Below are positions 1,225 to 11,549 of a stretch of DNA of 64,000 bases, one piece after another (position 1 is the stretch's first letter; each line of letters opens with the position of its first letter). The translations under genes were made by a program, and so were the position numbers. The stretch lies in the sequence record MZ065353.1; one strand, 5' to 3'. The notes under the pieces were generated by a model. The model did not search any database, was not told where the DNA came from, and saw only the letters and a list, made by a program, of their open reading frames with translations. Origin of the DNA: Escherichia virus KFS-EC3.

Positions 1225-1560
1225 ATGTCTGAAGTACAACAGCTACCAATTCGTGCTGTCGGTGAATATGTTATTTTAGTTTCTGAACCTGCGCAAGCCG
1301 GTGATGAAGAAGTTACAGAATCAGGACTTATTATTGGTAAACGTGTCCAAGGTGAAGTTCCTGAACTGTGTGTAGTTCACTCTGTTGGTCCTGATGTTCC
1401 TGAAGGTTTCTGCGAAGTTGGTGATTTGACTTCTCTTCCAGTTGGTCAAATTCGAAACGTTCCTCATCCTTTTGTAGCTCTGGGTCTTAAGCAGCCAAAA
1501 GAAATTAAGCAAAAATTCGTTACCTGTCACTATAAAGCTATTCCGTGTCTTTATAAGTGA
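1225..1560 (+). CDS. 31: co-chaperonin GroES-like gp31
   Basis: 111 aa, same length and position as T4 gp31; AGGAAA RBS upstream. Confidence 0.85.
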
Positions 1561-1707
1561 TATAAATAATAATATGAATTGGGTGTCGGAATAATAAGTT
1601 AACCGAACAATTCTACGTGGTAGTCTACAACTGAGAGATCTGTCGAAAGAAGATGAAATTCAGAAGAACGTGACTACCGAGTTTTAATCTCTAACGAGAA
1701 TTTTTAA

Positions 1708-1956
1708 ATGATTAAACAATTACAACACGCTCTTGAACTGCAACGAAACGCATGGAATAATGGTCACGAAAACTATGGCGCATCTATTGATGTTGAAGCC
1801 GAAGCTCTTGAAATCCTGCGTTATTTCAAACATCTGAATCCTGCTCAAACTGCATTAGCTGCTGAGCTTCAGGAAAAAGATGAACTTAAATATGCTAAGC
1901 CTCTGGCTTCTGCCGCACGAAAAGCAGTTCGTCACTTTGTGGTAACACTGAAGTAA
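1708..1956 (+). CDS. rIII: lysis inhibition accessory protein rIII
   Basis: 82 aa, same length and position as T4 rIII. Confidence 0.8.
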   Translation: MIKQLQHALELQRNAWNNGHENYGASIDVEAEALEILRYFKHLNPAQTALAAELQEKDELKYAKPLASAARKAVRHFVVTLK

Positions 1957-2150
1957 TTTATTGGAGAGTCACTGCCTTAGTGTGAAGTTAAAACGAGGAG
2001 CCGTCGAACTTTGTTTTACGGTGTACCTCTTGAATGTTGACGAGGTTTATGGTTATCCTGTCGGTAAATATTCAAAACCTAAGTACCCCTTGAGGGCTTT
2101 CGCAGGCAATGCCAATAAGTCCTGCATTTTCATTTAAAAGAGAATTTATA

Positions 2151-2327
2151 ATGGCAAAACAAGCTAAAGCAAAGAAAGCAGTTGAAAAGAAAGTTGGTGA
2201 TTCTAAACGCGCTGGTTACAAGCGTGGGTCGAACTCTCGTATCAATCAAACTGTTGAGAAGATCATGCGCCGAGCACGTGCGGTTCTTCGAGATGATGCT
2301 TCTCGTTTTGGTAAGCAGAAAGCATAA
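2151..2327 (+). CDS. small highly basic protein (position of T4 30.9)
   Basis: 58 aa from ATG at 2151 (MAKQAKAKKAVEKK...), Lys/Arg-rich; the track ORF from 2109 has a less plausible start. Confidence 0.5.
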   Translation: MAKQAKAKKAVEKKVGDSKRAGYKRGSNSRINQTVEKIMRRARAVLRDDASRFGKQKA

Positions 2328-2332
2328 GTTAA

Positions 2333-2358
2333 GGACTCCTTCGGGAGTCCTTTTTTAT
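2333..2358 (+). terminator. rho-independent terminator hairpin
   Basis: GGACTCC-TTCG-GGAGTCC stem-loop followed by T7 run. Confidence 0.6.
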
Positions 2359-2380
2359 TTTCCAAAGATTGCACAAAGTT

Positions 2381-2413
2381 GTTTACAGTATGGCTCCTTT
2401 GTGATAGTATTAT
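2381..2413 (+). promoter_or_regulatory. T4-type early promoter inside a stem-loop (PeSL-like cassette)
   Basis: GTTTAC, 17 nt, then ATAGTATTAT; inverted repeat CTCCTTTG/CAAAGGAG encloses the -10. Confidence 0.5.
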
Positions 2414-2437
2414 CTTACACAAACAAAGGAGAATAAA

Positions 2438-2806
2438 ATGAAAATCAATCTTAACTCATACATCAAAGGTAAAGATCACGACGGCTATAAAGCTATCGAA
2501 ACTAAAGAACTTCAGTGGCATTTATATAAAGAACAATTTGAATTCGTAGATTGTATGACTCCTGAAGGTCCTTCTGATGATTTCTCTTGGAAAATAATGT
2601 TAACTAACTTTTTTACTGGAGATACATACGAATTAAAAACTTTGATTCTTGGTAAAATTCGCTGTGAGACTTATGAAGATAAAGAAACTGGTTACTCTGA
2701 AGATGTTACGTGGTATCAAAATGGTCGTATTACCGCTGACCTCTTGATTGAAAAAATGAAAGCTAAAGGTGAATTAAATTTAGATAATTGGATTAAAGTT
2801 GCATAA
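2438..2806 (+). CDS. hypothetical early protein
   Basis: 122 aa ORF with GGAGAA RBS; no recognisable motif. Confidence 0.5.
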   Translation: MKINLNSYIKGKDHDGYKAIETKELQWHLYKEQFEFVDCMTPEGPSDDFSWKIMLTNFFTGDTYELKTLILGKIRCETYEDKETGYSEDVTWYQNGRITADLLIEKMKAKGELNLDNWIKVA

Positions 2807-2810
2807 AATA

Positions 2811-2850
2811 GTTTACTTTGGTACAGGATATGATATTATATACCTGTACC
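2811..2850 (+). promoter_or_regulatory. T4-type early promoter inside a stem-loop (PeSL-like cassette)
   Basis: GTTTAC, 17 nt, then TATTAT; inverted repeat GGTACAGG/CCTGTACC encloses the -10. Confidence 0.5.
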
Positions 2851-2876
2851 GCAATTAAACATCTCGGAGAATAAAA

Positions 2877-3242
2877 ATGAATTACATCAACTTTGAACGT
2901 AAATATGTTTCTAACGGTATTGCAGGTTCTATTGATACTATCTGCCTTTGGAAACATCAAAATGGATCAGTATGCGAAATTGAACAGTATATGACTCCTA
3001 ACTACGTTTATATGCGATTTGAAAATGGCATCACGGTTTCAATCACGAAAGAAGGTTCTTCTTTTAAAATCGCATTGGATGATGATTTTCGTCAACGCGA
3101 TTTAGGGACTCATCCTTGCTGGAATGGCGTTAATCGCAAGCTTCTGGTTAAAACTTGGATTCGTCATATTCTGAGTAACAGAGCTAAACCTGAGCATCTT
3201 GAAGCAATCTTTGATGTAGTTCTTAACGAATTTGATATTTAA
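2877..3242 (+). CDS. hypothetical early protein
   Basis: 121 aa ORF with GGAGAA RBS. Confidence 0.5.
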   Translation: MNYINFERKYVSNGIAGSIDTICLWKHQNGSVCEIEQYMTPNYVYMRFENGITVSITKEGSSFKIALDDDFRQRDLGTHPCWNGVNRKLLVKTWIRHILSNRAKPEHLEAIFDVVLNEFDI

Positions 3243-3251
3243 ATAAAATGA

Positions 3252-3265
3252 GGGGCTTCGGCCCC
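3252..3265 (+). terminator. GC-rich UUCG tetraloop hairpin
   Basis: GGGGC-TTCG-GCCCC directly after the ORF stop; weak T-run, so possibly an RNA-stability hairpin rather than a terminator. Confidence 0.4.
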
Positions 3266-3282
3266 TTACTGAGGAAAATACT

Positions 3283-3570
3283 ATGTTTATGACTACTTAT
3301 TTTGATACCCGCAAAAATTTCTGTGAAGTGGTTTTCTCTAAGGCACCTAAAGACCTTCCTGCTCATTTGCAGCCTACTAGTGAATCGATTAAAAACTATG
3401 TTAATGTAGTCTGCCCTTTAGAGTTCCGTACTGTAAATGGCCGCGATACTTTAGCTATCACTAAACTTAATCGTGAAATTGACATTGACCCTTCAATTGC
3501 GCGTGAAATTAATATTTCTGATATTGGCGGCGGTAATGTTAAATCACACGGTTTTCAGATGAGATTTTAA
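3283..3570 (+). CDS. hypothetical protein
   Basis: 95 aa ORF. Confidence 0.45.
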   Translation: MFMTTYFDTRKNFCEVVFSKAPKDLPAHLQPTSESIKNYVNVVCPLEFRTVNGRDTLAITKLNREIDIDPSIAREINISDIGGGNVKSHGFQMRF

Positions 3571-3574
3571 TAAA

Positions 3575-3790
3575 ATGTTTAAGAAATTAATCCAGAAATT
3601 ACTGGGCACGGAAATGGTCGAAGTTACTTATCGTGTGACTGATGTCTCTCCGCTCACTGAAGACCATTTAGAGCCATATATTATGACAATTAAAATGCTT
3701 AAACATGATGGCGGATTATCTATTGAAGACCGTTTACCAAGTTATGGTCATTGGGCTGATATTGAAATTATAAGTATTAAAGATGTCTGA
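3575..3790 (+). CDS. hypothetical protein
   Basis: 71 aa ORF, overlaps the next ORF start. Confidence 0.45.
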   Translation: MFKKLIQKLLGTEMVEVTYRVTDVSPLTEDHLEPYIMTIKMLKHDGGLSIEDRLPSYGHWADIEIISIKDV

Positions 3791-4241
3791 GTTAGAGATT
3801 AGAAGCAATTTTAGATGGCCATCATGTGCATTAAGTAATTTCGCCCAATGGCCTTTTGTTATGGACGGTATCCAATTTGGAGGTCTCGAAGGATTCCTCC
3901 AAGGATGCAAGGTGAAAAATGTTGAACAACAGCGTCGTATATTTGGGTTATCCGGGCTTGCCGCCCAACAAGCTGGACGAGCTTATGCTAGAGCTCAGGA
4001 CCGTGGCACGTTGTTCTGGCTTGGAACTCCGTTTTCAAGATATTCCGAAGCATGGAAAGAATTATACACAAATGCATATTTTGAAGCAGCGTTCCAAAAC
4101 AAGGGCTTTCGCGATGCATTACAAGCCTCGAAAGGAAAAGTTTTGAAGCACAGCATGGCTAGTGGTCTAACAAAAGATGATACAATACTAACCGAAGCTG
4201 AATTTATTGATGTGTTAAACCTATTAAGAGACTCTCTATGA
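3783..4241 (+). CDS. NADAR-like (YbiA/DUF1768-like) protein, candidate (position of T4 30.3)
   Basis: 152 aa; segment SNFAQWPFVMDGIQFGGLEGFLQGCK resembles the NADAR core; assignment from memory of the motif, not from a search. Confidence 0.45.
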   Translation: MSELEIRSNFRWPSCALSNFAQWPFVMDGIQFGGLEGFLQGCKVKNVEQQRRIFGLSGLAAQQAGRAYARAQDRGTLFWLGTPFSRYSEAWKELYTNAYFEAAFQNKGFRDALQASKGKVLKHSMASGLTKDDTILTEAEFIDVLNLLRDSL

Positions 4242-5077
4242 AGCCAACTATTTTGACTGATATTGATGGAGTATGTTTAAGCTGGCAATCAGGCCTTCCT
4301 TATTTTGCTCAGAAATATAATCTTCCGTTAGAACATATTTTAAAAATGATCCAAGATGAGAAATTTATTTCTCCAGGTAAACTCTTTAATTGTGATGAAG
4401 AACTTGGTGTCAAGTTAATTGAAAAATACAATCGTTCAGATTTTATTCGTTATTTGTCTCCGTATAAAGATGCCCTGTGTGTAATTAACAAATTAAAAGA
4501 AGATTATAATTTTGTAGCTGTTACAGCATTGGGTGATTCTATTGACGCTCTGTTGAATCGTCAATTTAATTTGAATGCTCTTTTTCCTGGTGCCTTCTCA
4601 GAAGTAATGATGTGTGGTCATGATTCTTCAAAAGAAGAGTTATTCAAAAAGGCAAAAGAGAAATATAACGTAATTTGTTATATTGACGATCTTGCTCACC
4701 ACTGCGATCATGCGAGTGAAATATTAAATGTTCCTGTTTATTGGATGGCTCGAGGAGAGCGTGATAATATTCCAAAAACTGCGCAGCGAGTTTATACATG
4801 GAATGATGTAGAAAATAAGCTTTTTTCGCCGAAGGAAAATAAAGAAAGTTTTGATAGTGAAAAAGCTATAAAAGATTTAATTGAGAAGATGGTTAAAAAC
4901 GATTCTTTTCCTTGGAACACTACCTGGAGAACGCCTGGATTTAATCCTTATAATCATCTATATCATCCATATCAGACACATCCGTTTCAGACATGGAACT
5001 ATATTAAACCTGGTGGCATAGAGTATTTGTATAATAGACCTACTTGTGGTGATAATATTTTCCAAGGAGCATTCTAA
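4238..5077 (+). CDS. HAD-superfamily phosphatase/nucleotidase-like protein (position of T4 30.2)
   Basis: 279 aa; N-terminal ILTDIDGV matches HAD motif I (DxDG). Confidence 0.5.
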   Translation: MKPTILTDIDGVCLSWQSGLPYFAQKYNLPLEHILKMIQDEKFISPGKLFNCDEELGVKLIEKYNRSDFIRYLSPYKDALCVINKLKEDYNFVAVTALGDSIDALLNRQFNLNALFPGAFSEVMMCGHDSSKEELFKKAKEKYNVICYIDDLAHHCDHASEILNVPVYWMARGERDNIPKTAQRVYTWNDVENKLFSPKENKESFDSEKAIKDLIEKMVKNDSFPWNTTWRTPGFNPYNHLYHPYQTHPFQTWNYIKPGGIEYLYNRPTCGDNIFQGAF

Positions 5078-5346
5078 TGTTTGTTGTTCACACTATTTAT
5101 GAAAATGAAGGTAATACTACACGTGATTACGGTCACGTAAATCAATTTTTTAGATGCAATCCAGAATTCCGAGCTCAAAAAGACGAACGAATTTTTAAAA
5201 AATGTGTAGAGCAAGGTTTCATTTATATCAAGCACTGGATGCAAGGAAATAAAGTTAGAACTACATATCATAGGTCTTTAACTGAGCTTAATGATGAATT
5301 GATTTATAATAGAGCTGTAAATCAAACTCTGAAGGATGAACAATGA
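5077..5346 (+). CDS. hypothetical protein (position of T4 30.1)
   Basis: 89 aa ORF, start overlaps previous stop. Confidence 0.45.
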   Translation: MFVVHTIYENEGNTTRDYGHVNQFFRCNPEFRAQKDERIFKKCVEQGFIYIKHWMQGNKVRTTYHRSLTELNDELIYNRAVNQTLKDEQ

Positions 5347-6806
5347 TTCTTAAAATTCTGAATGAAATAGCATCTATTGGATCAACTAAGCAGAAGCAAG
5401 CAATTCTTGAAAAGAATAAAGATAATGAATTGCTTAAACGAGTATATCGTCTAACTTATTCTCGTGGGTTACAGTATTATATCAAGAAATGGCCTAAACC
5501 TGGTATTGCTACCCAGAGTTTTGGAATGCTGACTATTACCGATATGCTTGACTTCATTGAATTCACGTTAGCTACTCGGAAATTGACCGGAAATGCTGCA
5601 ATTGAGGAATTGACTGGATATATCACCGATGGTAAAAAGGATGATGTTGAAGTTTTGCGTCGAGTTATGATGCGAGACCTTGAATGCGGTGCTTCAGTAT
5701 CTATTGCAAACAAAGTTTGGCCAGGTTTAATTCCTGAACAACCTCAAATGCTGGCAAGTTCTTATGATGAAAAAGGCATTAGTAAGAATATCAAGTTTCC
5801 AGCTTTTGCGCAGTTAAAAGCAGATGGAGCTCGGTGTTTTGCTGAAGTCCGAGGTGATGAATTAGATGATGTTCGTCTTTTATCACGAGCTGGTAATGAA
5901 TATCTAGGATTAGATCTTCTTAAGGAAGAATTAATCAAAATGACTGCTGAAGCCCGCCAGATTCATCCAGAAGGTGTGTTAATTGATGGCGAATTGGTAT
6001 ACCATGAGCAAGTTAAAAAGGAACCAGAAGGCCTAGATTTTCTTTTTGATGCTTATCCTGAAATTAGTAAAGCTAAAGAATTCGCCGAAGTAGCGGAATC
6101 TCGTACTACTTCTAATGGAATCGCCAATAAATCCTTAAAAGGAACCATTTCTGAAAAAGAAGCTCAATGCATGAAGTTTCAGGTCTGGGATTATGTCCCG
6201 TTGGTAGAAATATACGGTCTTCCGGCGTTTCGTTTAAAATATGATGTACGTTTTTCTAAACTAGAACAAATGACATCAGGATATGATAAAGTAATTTTAA
6301 TTGAAAACCAGGTAGTAAATAACCTAGATGAAGCTAAGGTAATTTATAAAAAGTATATTGACCAAGGTCTTGAAGGTATTATTCTCAAAAATACCGATGG
6401 ATTGTGGGAAAATGCTCGTTCAAAAAATCTCTATAAATTTAAAGAAGTAATTGATGTTGATTTAAAAATTGTAGGAATTTATCCTCACCGTAAAGACCCT
6501 ACTAAAGCAGGTGGATTTATTCTTGAATCAGAGTGTGGAAAAATTAAAGTAAATGCTGGTTCAGGCTTAAAAGATAAAGCCGGTGTAAAATCACATGAAC
6601 TTGACCGTACTCGCATTATGGAAAACCAAAATTATTATATTGGAAAAATTCTAGAGTGCGAATGCAACGGTTGGCTAAAATCTGATGGCCGCACTGATTA
6701 CGTTAAATTATTTCTTCCGATTGCGATTCGTTTACGTGAAGATAAAACTAAAGCTAATACATTCGAGGATGTATTTGGTGATTTTCATGAGGTAACTGGT
6801 CTATGA
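5343..6806 (+). CDS. 30: ATP-dependent DNA ligase
   Basis: 487 aa as T4 gp30; KxDG adenylation motif (LKADGAR). Confidence 0.9.
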   Translation: MILKILNEIASIGSTKQKQAILEKNKDNELLKRVYRLTYSRGLQYYIKKWPKPGIATQSFGMLTITDMLDFIEFTLATRKLTGNAAIEELTGYITDGKKDDVEVLRRVMMRDLECGASVSIANKVWPGLIPEQPQMLASSYDEKGISKNIKFPAFAQLKADGARCFAEVRGDELDDVRLLSRAGNEYLGLDLLKEELIKMTAEARQIHPEGVLIDGELVYHEQVKKEPEGLDFLFDAYPEISKAKEFAEVAESRTTSNGIANKSLKGTISEKEAQCMKFQVWDYVPLVEIYGLPAFRLKYDVRFSKLEQMTSGYDKVILIENQVVNNLDEAKVIYKKYIDQGLEGIILKNTDGLWENARSKNLYKFKEVIDVDLKIVGIYPHRKDPTKAGGFILESECGKIKVNAGSGLKDKAGVKSHELDRTRIMENQNYYIGKILECECNGWLKSDGRTDYVKLFLPIAIRLREDKTKANTFEDVFGDFHEVTGL

Positions 6807-6991
6807 AAGCTTACTTAGAAACAATTGTCGTTGCTCAAAAAGAAGGTGGAGATGTTTCTACTTCTGTATCACAAATCGTTCTCGAATTTGTAGATGCATA
6901 TGCTTATAATAAATTTACAGAAACATTTGATGCCTACGAAAAAGGTCCAAAGTTTGAAATATATCGTACTCTCTTACCACTAGATTATTAA
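6803..6991 (+). CDS. hypothetical small protein
   Basis: 62 aa ORF overlapping ligase stop (ATGA). Confidence 0.4.
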   Translation: MKAYLETIVVAQKEGGDVSTSVSQIVLEFVDAYAYNKFTETFDAYEKGPKFEIYRTLLPLDY

Positions 6992-7006
6992 AGGCCTTCG
7001 GGCCTT
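6991..7006 (+). terminator. UUCG tetraloop terminator hairpin
   Basis: AAGGCC-TTCG-GGCCTT then TAATTTT. Confidence 0.5.
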
Positions 7007-7012
7007 TAATTT

Positions 7013-7020
7013 TATAAATA
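7013..7020 (+). promoter_or_regulatory. T4 late promoter (TATAAATA) upstream of alt-like gene
   Basis: exact TATAAATA 21 bp upstream of the ATG; late expression fits a capsid-packaged protein. Confidence 0.5.
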
Positions 7021-7040
7021 GAATAAACACTAGAGAGGAT

Positions 7041-9137
7041 ATGATGGAACTCATTACAGAATTATTTGACGAAGATACTACTCTTCCGATTACAAACTTA
7101 AATCCAAAGAAGAAAATACCACAAATTTTTTCAGTTCATGTTGATGACGCAATTGAACAACCAGGCTTTCGTTTATGTACCTATACATCTGGAGGTGATA
7201 CTAATCGCGATTTAAAAATGGGCGATAAAATGATGCATATTGTTCCTTTTACATTAACTGCTAAAGGTTCAATTGCTAAATTAAAAGGTCTCGGTCCAAG
7301 CCCAATTAATTACATCAATTCAGTTTTTACTGTTGCGATGCAGACGATGCGTCAGTATAAAATTGATGCCTGTATGCTTCGTATTCTTAAGTCTAAAACT
7401 GCTGGTCAAGCTCGACAAATTCAAGTTATTGCTGATAGACTTATCCGCAGTCGTTCAGGTGGCAGATACGTCCTTCTTAAGAAACTCTGGGATTACGATA
7501 AAAAGTATGCATATATTCTTATACATCGCAAAAATGTATCACTAGAAGACATTCCAGGAGTTCCGGAAATTAGCACCGAGCTCTTTACTAAAGTTGAATC
7601 GAAGGTCGGTGATGTTTATATCAATAAAGATACTGGAGCTCAAGTAACTAAAAATGAGGCAATTGCTGCATCTATTGCGCAAGAAAATGATAAACGTTCT
7701 GACCAAGCTGTAATCGTTAAAGTTAAAATTTCCCGTAGAGCAATTGCACAAAGTCAGTCATTAGAATCTTCTAGATTTGAAAGCGAATTATTCCAGAAGT
7801 ATGAATCTACCGCAGCTAATTTCAATAAACCTGCTACCGCTCCTTTAATTCCCGAAGCAGAAGAAATGAAACTTGGAATTAATTCATTAGCTTCTAAAAC
7901 TAAGGCAGCAAAAATTATTGCCGAAGGAACCACAGATGAACTTCATTATGACTATAAATTCTTTTCAAAAAGTGAGGTTAATGAAGTTTCTGAAAAAATT
8001 AAAGACGTAATTTTTAACGCGATCAAAAATGAACCGACTACTTCAATAAAATGTTTAGAGAAGTATGCAGCAGCTATTAATAAATTCTTTGAAGAATATA
8101 AAGATAATTGGCTTGATAAACATAATAAAACCCGTAAAGGACAGCCAGATGAAGTCTGGGAAGAAATGACTAAAAATTCCTGGAACGCAGCAAAAACTAA
8201 ATTCCTCAAAAGAATGATTTATAGTTTTTCTGGAATTGGTGCAGGTCCAATGATTGATATTACTATTGCCCGTGATGGTTCTAAATATACTCCATCACAA
8301 AAGCGCGGCATTAGAGAGTATTGCGGTTCAGGATATACTGACATCAATAATCTTCTTTTAGGACGCTACAATCCAGAACGATATGATGTAATGAGTGAAA
8401 AAGAAATTGAATCTGCTATAAATAACTTAGATTCAGCTTTTGAAAATGGTGACCGTATACCAGAAGGCATTACAGTTTATCGTGCTCAAAGTATGACTGC
8501 TCCTATATACGAAGCACTAGTTAAAAATAAAGTGTTCTATTTCAGAAATTTTGTATCTACTTCTTTAACTCCTATCATTTTTGGACGTTTTGGAATTACA
8601 CATGCTGGTATTGGTCTTTTAGAACCAGAAGCTCGTAATGAACTGACAGTTGATAAAAATGAAGAAGGAATAACTATTAATCCAAACGAAATAAGAGCGT
8701 ATAAAGAAAATCCTGAATACGTTAAAGTTCAAATAGGATGGGCAATTGATGGAGCTCATAAAGTTAATGTTGTATATCCAGGAAGTCTCGGAATAGCAAC
8801 AGAAGCTGAAGTTATTCTACCACGCGGATTGATGGTCAAAGTTAATAAAATAACTGATGCTTCTAATAATGACGGAACAACATCTAATAATACAAAACTC
8901 ATTCAAGCTGAAGTTATGACTACGGAAGAACTCACCGAATCAGTAATTTATGACGGTGATCGTCTAATGGAAACTGGTGAAGTAGTTGCAATGACAGGTG
9001 ATATTGAAATAGAAGACAGAGTTGACTTTGCATCATTTGTTTCATCAAATGTTAAACAAAAAGTAGAATCATCTCTTGGAATTATTGCGTCTTGCATAGA
9101 TATTACAAACATGCCTTACAAGTTCGTTCAAGGATAA
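7041..9137 (+). CDS. Alt-like ADP-ribosyltransferase, paralog 1
   Basis: 698 aa; N-terminus MELITE; R-S-E type ART signatures YRAQ, FVSTSL, EAEVILPRG. Confidence 0.75.
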   Translation: MMELITELFDEDTTLPITNLNPKKKIPQIFSVHVDDAIEQPGFRLCTYTSGGDTNRDLKMGDKMMHIVPFTLTAKGSIAKLKGLGPSPINYINSVFTVAMQTMRQYKIDACMLRILKSKTAGQARQIQVIADRLIRSRSGGRYVLLKKLWDYDKKYAYILIHRKNVSLEDIPGVPEISTELFTKVESKVGDVYINKDTGAQVTKNEAIAASIAQENDKRSDQAVIVKVKISRRAIAQSQSLESSRFESELFQKYESTAANFNKPATAPLIPEAEEMKLGINSLASKTKAAKIIAEGTTDELHYDYKFFSKSEVNEVSEKIKDVIFNAIKNEPTTSIKCLEKYAAAINKFFEEYKDNWLDKHNKTRKGQPDEVWEEMTKNSWNAAKTKFLKRMIYSFSGIGAGPMIDITIARDGSKYTPSQKRGIREYCGSGYTDINNLLLGRYNPERYDVMSEKEIESAINNLDSAFENGDRIPEGITVYRAQSMTAPIYEALVKNKVFYFRNFVSTSLTPIIFGRFGITHAGIGLLEPEARNELTVDKNEEGITINPNEIRAYKENPEYVKVQIGWAIDGAHKVNVVYPGSLGIATEAEVILPRGLMVKVNKITDASNNDGTTSNNTKLIQAEVMTTEELTESVIYDGDRLMETGEVVAMTGDIEIEDRVDFASFVSSNVKQKVESSLGIIASCIDITNMPYKFVQG

Positions 9138-9140
9138 ATC

Positions 9141-11198
9141 ATGGAACTTATTACAGAATTATTTGACGGCGCTTCGGCGCCGGTTGTTAACTTAAATCCT
9201 AAGCATAAAATACCTCAAATTTTTGCTATTCAAGCCGGTGAAGAAAGCGTGCTTCCTGGATTTAGATTTTGTACATACACCTCTGGCGGTGATACAAATA
9301 AAAACGTTAAGCCAGGCGATAAAATGATGCATATCGTAATGATAGGTGTCAATGAGAAACTATCATTAGTTAAACTTAAAAACTTGGGTGGAAATCCAAT
9401 TGGTGTCATTAATGCGGTTTTTGATACTGCTCTTCAAACAATGAAACAGTATAAAATTGATGCATGCCTATTCCGCGTACTAAAAAGTAAAACAAATGGC
9501 GCAGCTCGTCAAATGCAAGTTATTGCTGACCGTTTAGTACGTACTAAAGGAGCAGGTCGATATGTTCTTTTAAAGGAAATCTGGGATTATGATAAAAAGT
9601 ATGCATATATTATGGTTTACCGTAAAAATGCCAATTTAAAAGACATTCCAGGTGTACCTCCTATTTCAACTGAGTTATTCACAAAAGTTGAATCAAAGGT
9701 TGGTGATGTTTATGTAGATGTTAAAACAGGTAATGCTGTTCCTAAAGCTGTTGCTGTTGCTGCTTCTATTGCTTTAGAAAATGATAAGCGCACGGATCAA
9801 GCTGTTATTCAGAAAACTAAAATTAGTCGTCGATTGGCAGCACAAGCTCAATATTCTACTGTCGATGCTTCGCTTCAGGGTGATAGCTTCGCTGCCAAGA
9901 AATATCAAGAGTTTGAATCTAAAGTTCCGGTATATAAAGCAGAAGGACCAATGAACTCTGGTGTTATTCAGATTGGTTCAAACTTCGGCAAAGGAGCTAT
10001 CGGTGGTATGAGAAGTGCTTCTCGTTTTAAATCTAACGATTATGAACTAGAAAGCTTCCGAAATCATATTGCATTGGCCCATGCACGTTTACGTGATCCG
10101 TCTATCAGACTGCAGAGCGATATAACACATCAAGGTTCTCAAGAATATTTAAAGAATAAAGAATTTTTTGATTATAAAACCGATAAAATTTTGAGCGATC
10201 TCGCTGACATTAATATTTCTAATAGCTTTGATGTTATTAAGAAAATTATCAATGATTTAGTTAAAGGTTCTAAAGCCACACCAGACGAAAAGGTAGCTAT
10301 TATTCAATTTGTCATGAATGGCATTTATAAATTGATTAATGAATCTGCTGCTCAGGCATATGAATACGCAAGCACCGAAGTAACTCCAAAAGGACTGACT
10401 CAGGCTGAGTCTGATGTAATTGAAGATTATTGTGCAGATTCATATGTTGAAATGAACTCGTTCCTCTTGGGTAAACCAGATTCTACCCGTGAAGAATATA
10501 TGGAACGAGCTATTAAACACATCGAGACGCTGGATTCTGCCTTTGCCAAAGGTTCAGTTCTTCCTCCAGGAACTACGCTTTATCGTGGACAAGAAGTTAC
10601 TTTTAAAACTTTACGCCATAATATTGAAAATAAAATGTTCTATTTCAAGAACTTCGTATCAACATCGCTTAAACCAAATATCTTCGGTGAGCATGGTAAA
10701 AACTATATGGCTCTAGATGATTCCGGCGCAGTATTTTCTGGTGAAGGAGAAGGTTCTGTTGATGCTGAAGATTTAATGCATATGGGCAGTCATTCTGCTT
10801 ATGCGAATGAAGATGCTGAAACTAGCGTAGGTATGGTAATAAAAGGAGCTGAGCGAATTAAAGTTATCGTTCCAGGTCATTTATCGGGATTTCCATCAGA
10901 AGCTGAAGTTATTCTACCGCGTGGAATTTTGTTGAAGATTAATAAAGTAAGCACGTACATGATGAAAGAAACTGCTTATAACAAGTATCTAATCGAAGGC
11001 ACAATCGTTCCTCCTTCTGAACAATTAGAAGAATCGGTATATGATGGCGATCATCTAATGGAAACTGGTGAAGTTCGTCCAATGGCTGGGTTTAATCAAT
11101 TCCTTGTAGAAGAATCAAAAGAAGAGGAAAACGAAGTTTCTCAAATCTTGGCTTCTTTGGTTAACATCAACGGAATGTCTAAAAAGTTCAAGATGTAG
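9141..11198 (+). CDS. alt: Alt-like ADP-ribosyltransferase, paralog 2
   Basis: 685 aa (T4 Alt is about 682); N-terminus MELITE; YRGQ, FVSTSL, EAEVILPRG. Confidence 0.8.
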   Translation: MELITELFDGASAPVVNLNPKHKIPQIFAIQAGEESVLPGFRFCTYTSGGDTNKNVKPGDKMMHIVMIGVNEKLSLVKLKNLGGNPIGVINAVFDTALQTMKQYKIDACLFRVLKSKTNGAARQMQVIADRLVRTKGAGRYVLLKEIWDYDKKYAYIMVYRKNANLKDIPGVPPISTELFTKVESKVGDVYVDVKTGNAVPKAVAVAASIALENDKRTDQAVIQKTKISRRLAAQAQYSTVDASLQGDSFAAKKYQEFESKVPVYKAEGPMNSGVIQIGSNFGKGAIGGMRSASRFKSNDYELESFRNHIALAHARLRDPSIRLQSDITHQGSQEYLKNKEFFDYKTDKILSDLADINISNSFDVIKKIINDLVKGSKATPDEKVAIIQFVMNGIYKLINESAAQAYEYASTEVTPKGLTQAESDVIEDYCADSYVEMNSFLLGKPDSTREEYMERAIKHIETLDSAFAKGSVLPPGTTLYRGQEVTFKTLRHNIENKMFYFKNFVSTSLKPNIFGEHGKNYMALDDSGAVFSGEGEGSVDAEDLMHMGSHSAYANEDAETSVGMVIKGAERIKVIVPGHLSGFPSEAEVILPRGILLKINKVSTYMMKETAYNKYLIEGTIVPPSEQLEESVYDGDHLMETGEVRPMAGFNQFLVEESKEEENEVSQILASLVNINGMSKKFKM

Positions 11199-11230
11199 TT
11201 TACAAGTCCCTCGTGTTGTGTTATAGTAAT
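11198..11230 (+). promoter_or_regulatory. T4-type early promoter inside a stem-loop (PeSL-like cassette)
   Basis: GTTTAC, 17 nt, then TTATAGTAAT; flanking inverted repeat CCTCGTGTT/AACATGAGG. Confidence 0.45.
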
Positions 11231-11258
11231 CTTACTGACATAACATGAGGAACACAAA

Positions 11259-11549
11259 ATGAAATCTTCTTTACGCTTTTTAGGTCAAGAACTTGTAGTT
11301 GAAGGCGTTATTCCTGCTGATAACGCTTTTAATGAAGCAGTTTATGATGAATTTATCAAAATTTTTGGAACAGATAAAAAGTTCGGAATTTTTCCTTCTG
11401 AAAATTTTTCAAAGCCAGAACAGACTGAAAGCATTTTCCAAGGTGTAGTAACAGGTAAATTTGAGTCAGAAGCTCCGGTAAAAATTGAAGTTTATATTGA
11501 AGACAGTTTAGTTGCTTCAGTTGCTGCTTTCATTTCATTCCGTAAATAA
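11259..11549 (+). CDS. hypothetical protein
   Basis: 96 aa ORF with GAGGAA RBS. Confidence 0.5.
   Translation: MKSSLRFLGQELVVEGVIPADNAFNEAVYDEFIKIFGTDKKFGIFPSENFSKPEQTESIFQGVVTGKFESEAPVKIEVYIEDSLVASVAAFISFRK

Follow-up and report, generated by a model that had tools for sequence, protein, structure and literature searches.

We analyzed a 64,000-nucleotide stretch of Escherichia virus KFS-EC3 (MZ065353.1; hereafter, the window) and the open reading frame (ORF) at 3783..4241 on its + strand, which is an intact ortholog of adfN (gene 30.3) of phage T4 and very probably, like it, an orphan, antitoxin-like NADAR enzyme countering the toxin DarT1. The first-pass annotation had proposed a guanine de-ADP-ribosylase directed against DarT, and this proposal agrees with the published role of the 97%-identical T4 protein gp30.3, now AdfN (PMC11825919, PMC11125620). 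The function of the ORF is thus already established for its T4 ortholog: the finding is correct and the feature is already known.

Identity of the ORF and its link to the NADAR superfamily

The identity, orthology and intactness of the ORF product, together with its fold and the conservation of its residues, were established on the product itself. The ORF starts with ATG and, as the first-pass annotation had reported, its product has 152 amino acids (aa); a stop codon follows. Its product matches the Pfam family PF08010 (Phage_30_3) over the whole profile (all 138 positions; E=1.5e-68; score 229.4 bits, cut-off 36) and phrog_652 (E=2.8e-51). It aligns without gaps and at equal length with T4 gp30.3, 147 of the 152 residues being identical and five substituted (S67A, V82T, P89E, I103F and I125M), and it is 100% identical to its counterpart in Shigella phage SH-1. 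According to the T4 annotation and tblastn, the ORF also holds the orthologous slot between 30.4 and 30.2, upstream of the DNA ligase gene. Direct reading of the sequence shows that its start overlaps the 30.4 stop (3783..3790, + strand; ATGTCTGA), an arrangement also seen in T4, and that its stop shares a 4-nucleotide ATGA with the start of 30.2 (4238..4241, + strand), an overlap for translational coupling that is also found in T4, T6, PST and VR5. By every testable criterion, the ORF is a member of the PF08010/AdfN family. Members are widespread: gene 30.3 was found by tblastn in 1,510 phage records, with hosts including Escherichia, Klebsiella, Shigella, Aeromonas, Acinetobacter and Vibrio.

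The motif quoted by the first-pass annotation is present in the product as S18-N19-F20-AQWP-F25-VM-D28-G29-IQ-F32-GGL-E36-GF-L39-Q40-G41-C42-K43. The residues had been given correctly, and only the first gap needs amending, being of four residues (SNF....F) and not three. This NADAR core motif (S18-K43, in short SNF..F..DG..F...EGFLQGCK; 3834..3911, + strand) consists of columns that are invariant or near-invariant in an alignment of 44 homologs reaching down to 35% identity. In this alignment, the catalytic glutamate E36 (codon GAA, 3888..3890, + strand), which aligns with E48 of YbiA, is invariant, and the catalytic or ADP-ribose (ADPr)-contacting lysine K43 (codon AAG, 3909..3911, + strand), which aligns with YbiA K55, is conserved in at least 90% of the sequences; S18-N19-F20 and D28-G29 are conserved as well. 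H123 (codon CAC, 4149..4151, + strand) is also invariant and, in the structure model, closes the last predicted strand (E120-123). According to the literature, this last-strand catalytic position is occupied by Glu in YbiA-family proteins, by Asp in those of the BC4488/DarG1 family and by His in phage NADARs (PMC11125620, PMC11543638), and H123 marks the phage (gp30.3) NADAR subgroup.

Structure prediction and fold comparison confirmed a NADAR fold for the ORF product, which was one of the checks proposed with the first-pass annotation. At the level of the family, a profile of the homologs finds Escherichia coli YbiA (2b3w) at E=0.0035 and aligns the motif stretch to YbiA residues 29-83, and 16 of the 44 family members match the NADAR profile PF08719 individually (best E=1.5e-7). 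Several metagenomic homologs have been named "YbiA (DUF1768 family)" by the Joint Genome Institute, and one of the homologs (P0078) bears both Pfam assignments. The fold, the catalytic residues and the family-level profile links, taken together and with no direct PF08719 match, place the ORF product in the NADAR superfamily, in which gp30.3 proteins were placed by Schuller et al. in 2023 (PMC11543638) and by a 2024 paper in Toxins (PMC11125620). The NADAR assignment of the first-pass annotation, which had been tentative, is therefore borne out by the fold and the conserved catalytic residues, as published for T4 gp30.3.

An additional ORF of 75 aa is embedded in the +1 frame inside 30.3 (3919-4146, + strand). 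It corresponds to the annotated gene 30.3' of T4, which is described there as "internal translation in a different reading frame", and is preceded by the Shine-Dalgarno-like sequence AAGGTG. Compared with T4, 19 of the 228 nucleotides inside the 30.3' overlap differ, against 8 of 231 outside it; divergence is much faster in the 30.3' product than in gp30.3, and neither RB16 nor distant homologs have this frame open. Thus, the nucleotide comparison with T4, the divergence rate and the openness of the frame in homologs give no sign of a dual-coding constraint on 30.3'.

Function of AdfN and alternative explanations

The ability of T-even phages to resist DarTG1 has been mapped to gene 30.3 by means of RB69 x T2/T4 chimeras, and the gene was renamed adfN, for anti-DarT factor NADAR (Johannesman, Awasthi, Carlson and LeRoux, Nat Commun 2025; PMC11825919). 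T4 and T2 with adfN deleted cannot form plaques on DarTG1 cells, and ectopic adfN-T4 restores the plaquing of RB69 and has no effect against DarTG2 (PMC11825919). E36A, K43A and a C-terminal truncation mimicking RB69 impair T4 AdfN, E36A doing so both in vivo and in vitro, and the purified T4 protein removes ADPr from DNA, an activity that the E36A mutant does not have (PMC11825919). Hydrolysis of ADPr by T4 gp30.3 in vitro is guanine specific (PMC11125620, PMC11543638). The reversal of DarT-type toxins suggested in the first-pass annotation holds for DarT1, which modifies guanine, and not for DarT2, which modifies thymine.

By extension from this work on the T4 protein, the ORF product would have the same enzymatic activity and confer the same anti-DarTG1 phenotype. 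In the proposed mechanism, adfN would be co-expressed with the rest of the rIII-to-ligase cluster. Host DarT1 would put ADPr on guanine of the phage DNA, and AdfN, using E36, K43 and H123 of its NADAR cleft, would hydrolyze the N-glycosidic bond, the C-terminal helix being needed for full activity; with ADPr removed, replication could proceed in DarTG1-carrying hosts. Thymine ADP-ribosylation by DarT2 would not be reversed, and, by analogy with T4, full function would be reached only during T-even infection.

Several observations weigh against this interpretation. The ORF product alone gave no match to PF08719 at E<=10 in the Pfam profile search, no sequence match in the PDB with phmmer, and no PADLOC (DarG) match at E<=1, and therefore the NADAR link rests on the fold and the family profile; the single-sequence NCBIfam scan gave no NADAR link either. 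Of the profile check proposed with the first-pass annotation, then, the direct match failed and the transitive one through the family succeeded; the refuting condition named there, lack of a NADAR profile match, applied by half. Furthermore, the construct listed in the Toxins paper as "E. coli T4 phage NADAR (gp30.3)" comprises residues 1-208, compared with 152 in gp30.3 (PMC11125620). Finally, some rescue persisted with the E36A and K43A mutants (PMC11825919), and AdfN-T4 fails to neutralize DarT1 in uninfected cells in both experimental papers (PMC11125620, PMC11825919), so that the in vivo mechanism is not fully explained. AdfN-T4 also rescues non-T-even phages only weakly, and the authors propose that it depends on a further T-even protein.

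The rescue still given by the E36A and K43A mutants would be expected if AdfN acted against DarT1 mainly in a non-catalytic way, whether through binding or sequestration of the toxin or through shielding of DNA, a mode reported for another phage NADAR-type factor; a phage NADAR protein that does not need its enzymatic activity is mentioned in the discussion of PMC11825919. However, AdfN-T4 and DarT1 did not associate in bacterial two-hybrid assays (PMC11825919), ADPr is stripped from DNA by the purified enzyme and not by E36A, and the family as a whole keeps the catalytic residues, which makes a mainly non-catalytic counter very improbable. It is likewise very improbable that the product is a YbiA-like metabolic N-glycosidase, clearing reactive riboflavin-pathway intermediates or other small-molecule N-ribosides and taking no part in DNA repair or anti-defense: the subfamily-diagnostic residue is His123, where YbiA-family proteins have Glu, the T4 protein, at 97% identity, shows a clear DarTG1 phenotype and de-ADP-ribosylates DNA, and YbiA too hydrolyzes guanine-ADPr in vitro.

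A third possibility is a decayed or inactive allele. The RB69 copy is inactivated by a frameshift that removes the last 15 residues of gp30.3 (PMC11825919), and truncated or fused gp30.3 fragments occur in the databases (P0004-P0008, P0013-P0017 and P0055), but it is very improbable that the window holds such an inactive allele, kept by synteny only, considering that the product is full length and gapless against T4, has all catalytic residues, and ends in a C-terminus identical to that of T4, T6 and PST, with the RB69-type frameshift absent and the helix of residues 138-151 (4194..4235, + strand) predicted with high confidence. None of the five differences from T4 (67, 82, 89, 103 and 125) touches an invariant column. 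We infer, by analogy, that these substitutions leave the function unchanged and that the window allele is equivalent to T4 AdfN. A widespread C-terminal truncation among relatives, which tblastn coverage of residues 1-144 only might have indicated, was rejected: this coverage is caused by low-complexity masking, and T6 and PST are full length with an identical C-terminus.

Among the database forms of gp30.3, four are fragments fused to gp30.4-like (PF11097), gp30.7 (PF06919) or gp30.8 (PF06019) domains (P0014, P0016, P0017 and P0055), and several others are truncated to 89-126 aa. These forms suggest that the island of certain T4-like phages has repeatedly undergone deletions or frameshifts, or else that the sequences were cut where contigs end.

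Gene 30.2 and the rIII-to-ligase island

Because AdfN-T4 is fully active only in T-even infection, a phage-encoded partner is possible, and gene 30.2 (4238-5077, + strand), which is coupled to adfN through the ATGA overlap, is one candidate. Its 279-aa product carries an N-terminal HAD-like DIDGV motif and matches phrog_420 (unknown function) and, weakly, a polynucleotide-kinase phrog; no Pfam, NCBIfam, PDB-sequence or PADLOC match was found for it. Several Straboviridae retain the order 30.3-30.2-ligase: Acinetobacter phage Konradin and RB16 have it, and Klebsiella phage Roth27 probably does. The pairing is absent around the gp30.3 homologs of Aeromonas avDM5, Rhizobium P10VF and two metagenomic phage lineages, and tblastn found neither gp30.2 nor other island genes near the distant homologs in loci L002-L007. 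This mixed pattern is as compatible with inherited synteny as with functional linkage, and we therefore consider it unlikely that gp30.2 is the T-even co-factor of AdfN. If it were, the two genes would form a two-gene anti-DarTG1 module.

In large metagenomic phage contigs (L002-L004, about 9115-11294), a gp30.3 homolog lies a few kb from NUDIX hydrolase and Thg1-like genes, and in L005 a homolog of another lineage is near a phosphoribosyl pyrophosphate (PRPP)-synthetase gene at the locus edge (1-22). Such neighbors have a flavor of nucleotide or ADP-ribose metabolism.

The window is a Tequatrovirus (T4-like) genome; over 3000-6000 it shares 97.6% identity with Shigella phage SH-2, and this part is matched by 727 phage records. 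A tblastn search with T4 proteins assigned the genes around the ORF to cd, 31.2, 31.1, 31, rIII, 30.9-30.6, 30.4-30.1, ligase, alt.1 and alt, in an island whose orientation is the reverse of the T4 map. The rIII-to-ligase setting described in the first-pass annotation is correct, rIII (1708-1956) and the DNA ligase gene (5343-6806) both being 99-100% identical to T4. Divergence from T4 is mosaic, being concentrated at 2438-3790 and 7041-9137, and the rest of the region is 97-100% identical. Gene 30.5 is absent, and the identity to T4 is 48.5% for gp30.4, 38.8% for gp30.8 and 69.5% for Alt.

The two Alt paralogs that had also been noted are present as PF03496 genes: one Alt-type ADP-ribosyltransferase gene at 7041-9137, and a second, intact paralog of 685 aa at 9141-11198 (+ strand; E=3e-20). 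The hint that the ORF might be tied to these ADP-ribosyl writers of the phage itself found no support. The short T4 genes alt.-1 and alt.-2 match the N-terminus (9141-9488) and the extreme C-terminus (11179-11223) of the second paralog. What T4 has therefore appears to be the remnant, left by an internal deletion, of a second Alt gene that is full length in the window.

A strong terminator-like hairpin (2331-2352, + strand; a 9-bp stem with five G-C pairs, then a T-run) stands directly after gene 30.9, and promoter-like sites occur downstream of it at 2382 and 2812. A boundary between transcription units may lie here, upstream of the 30.8-30.1 block. Across 1500-7100, promoter-like sites were at chance level in the promoter and terminator scan (18 found, 19.8 expected), and the scan is therefore uninformative on expression.

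Significance and comparison with known NADAR systems

For the window, the gene is of little consequence, being a near-identical copy of a characterized counter-defense factor present in about 1,500 sequenced phages. By analogy with T4, the intact allele would predict resistance to DarTG1-type defense, unlike RB69, which could be useful for host-range or phage-therapy annotation. The remaining question of why T4-type AdfN needs the T-even infection context concerns the published system and not the window locus. As for annotation, gp30.3/AdfN homologs are mislabeled as "prohead core protein" in T6 (L008, 601-1059) and as "putative homing endonuclease" in Rhizobium phage P10VF (L016, 2504-2965). 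In the record of phage Killian (hit H6), "putative baseplate hub" is among the feature names under a 3-kb match, and most other public records of gp30.3 homologs read "hypothetical protein".

The closest known system is T4 gp30.3 (AdfN-T4), which has the same length of 152 aa, the same slot and overlaps with 30.4 and 30.2, and the same E36, K43, H123 and C-terminal helix. The window copy differs from it in five conservative to moderate substitutions (A67, T82, E89, F103 and M125), and its neighborhood differs in lacking 30.5 and in having a 30.4 that is only about half identical.

The BC4488-type NADAR DarG1, exemplified by the G. lovleyi NADAR (PDB 8bat), is more distant. In contrast to it, the window ORF is an orphan without an adjacent DarT1: its flanking genes are 30.4 and 30.2, and neither encodes an ADP-ribosyltransferase domain. 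The window product also has His123 instead of Asp at the last-strand position, is smaller (152 aa, compared with 219 aa) and lacks a PADLOC match, and its T4 ortholog does not substitute for DarG1 when cells are uninfected. Strictly speaking, the product is thus no DarG1 antitoxin, although, to judge from T4, it would work like one in the context of infection.

E. coli YbiA (PDB 2b3w) and the P. nicotianae NADAR (PDB 8bau) have a Glu at the last-strand position, unlike the window product, with which they share a sequence identity of about 19-20%; YbiA, in addition, has a metabolic role in the cleavage of riboflavin intermediates, which differs from the role proposed here. AdfN-Bas32 and AdfN-Bas60, from T5-like and Vequintavirinae phages, resemble the T4 type in being phage-borne, guanine-ADPr-specific NADARs that counter DarTG1. 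However, they stem from other NADAR branches through independent acquisition, and, unlike the T4 type, which is context dependent, they need no phage infection to neutralize DarT1 and also rescue unrelated phages.
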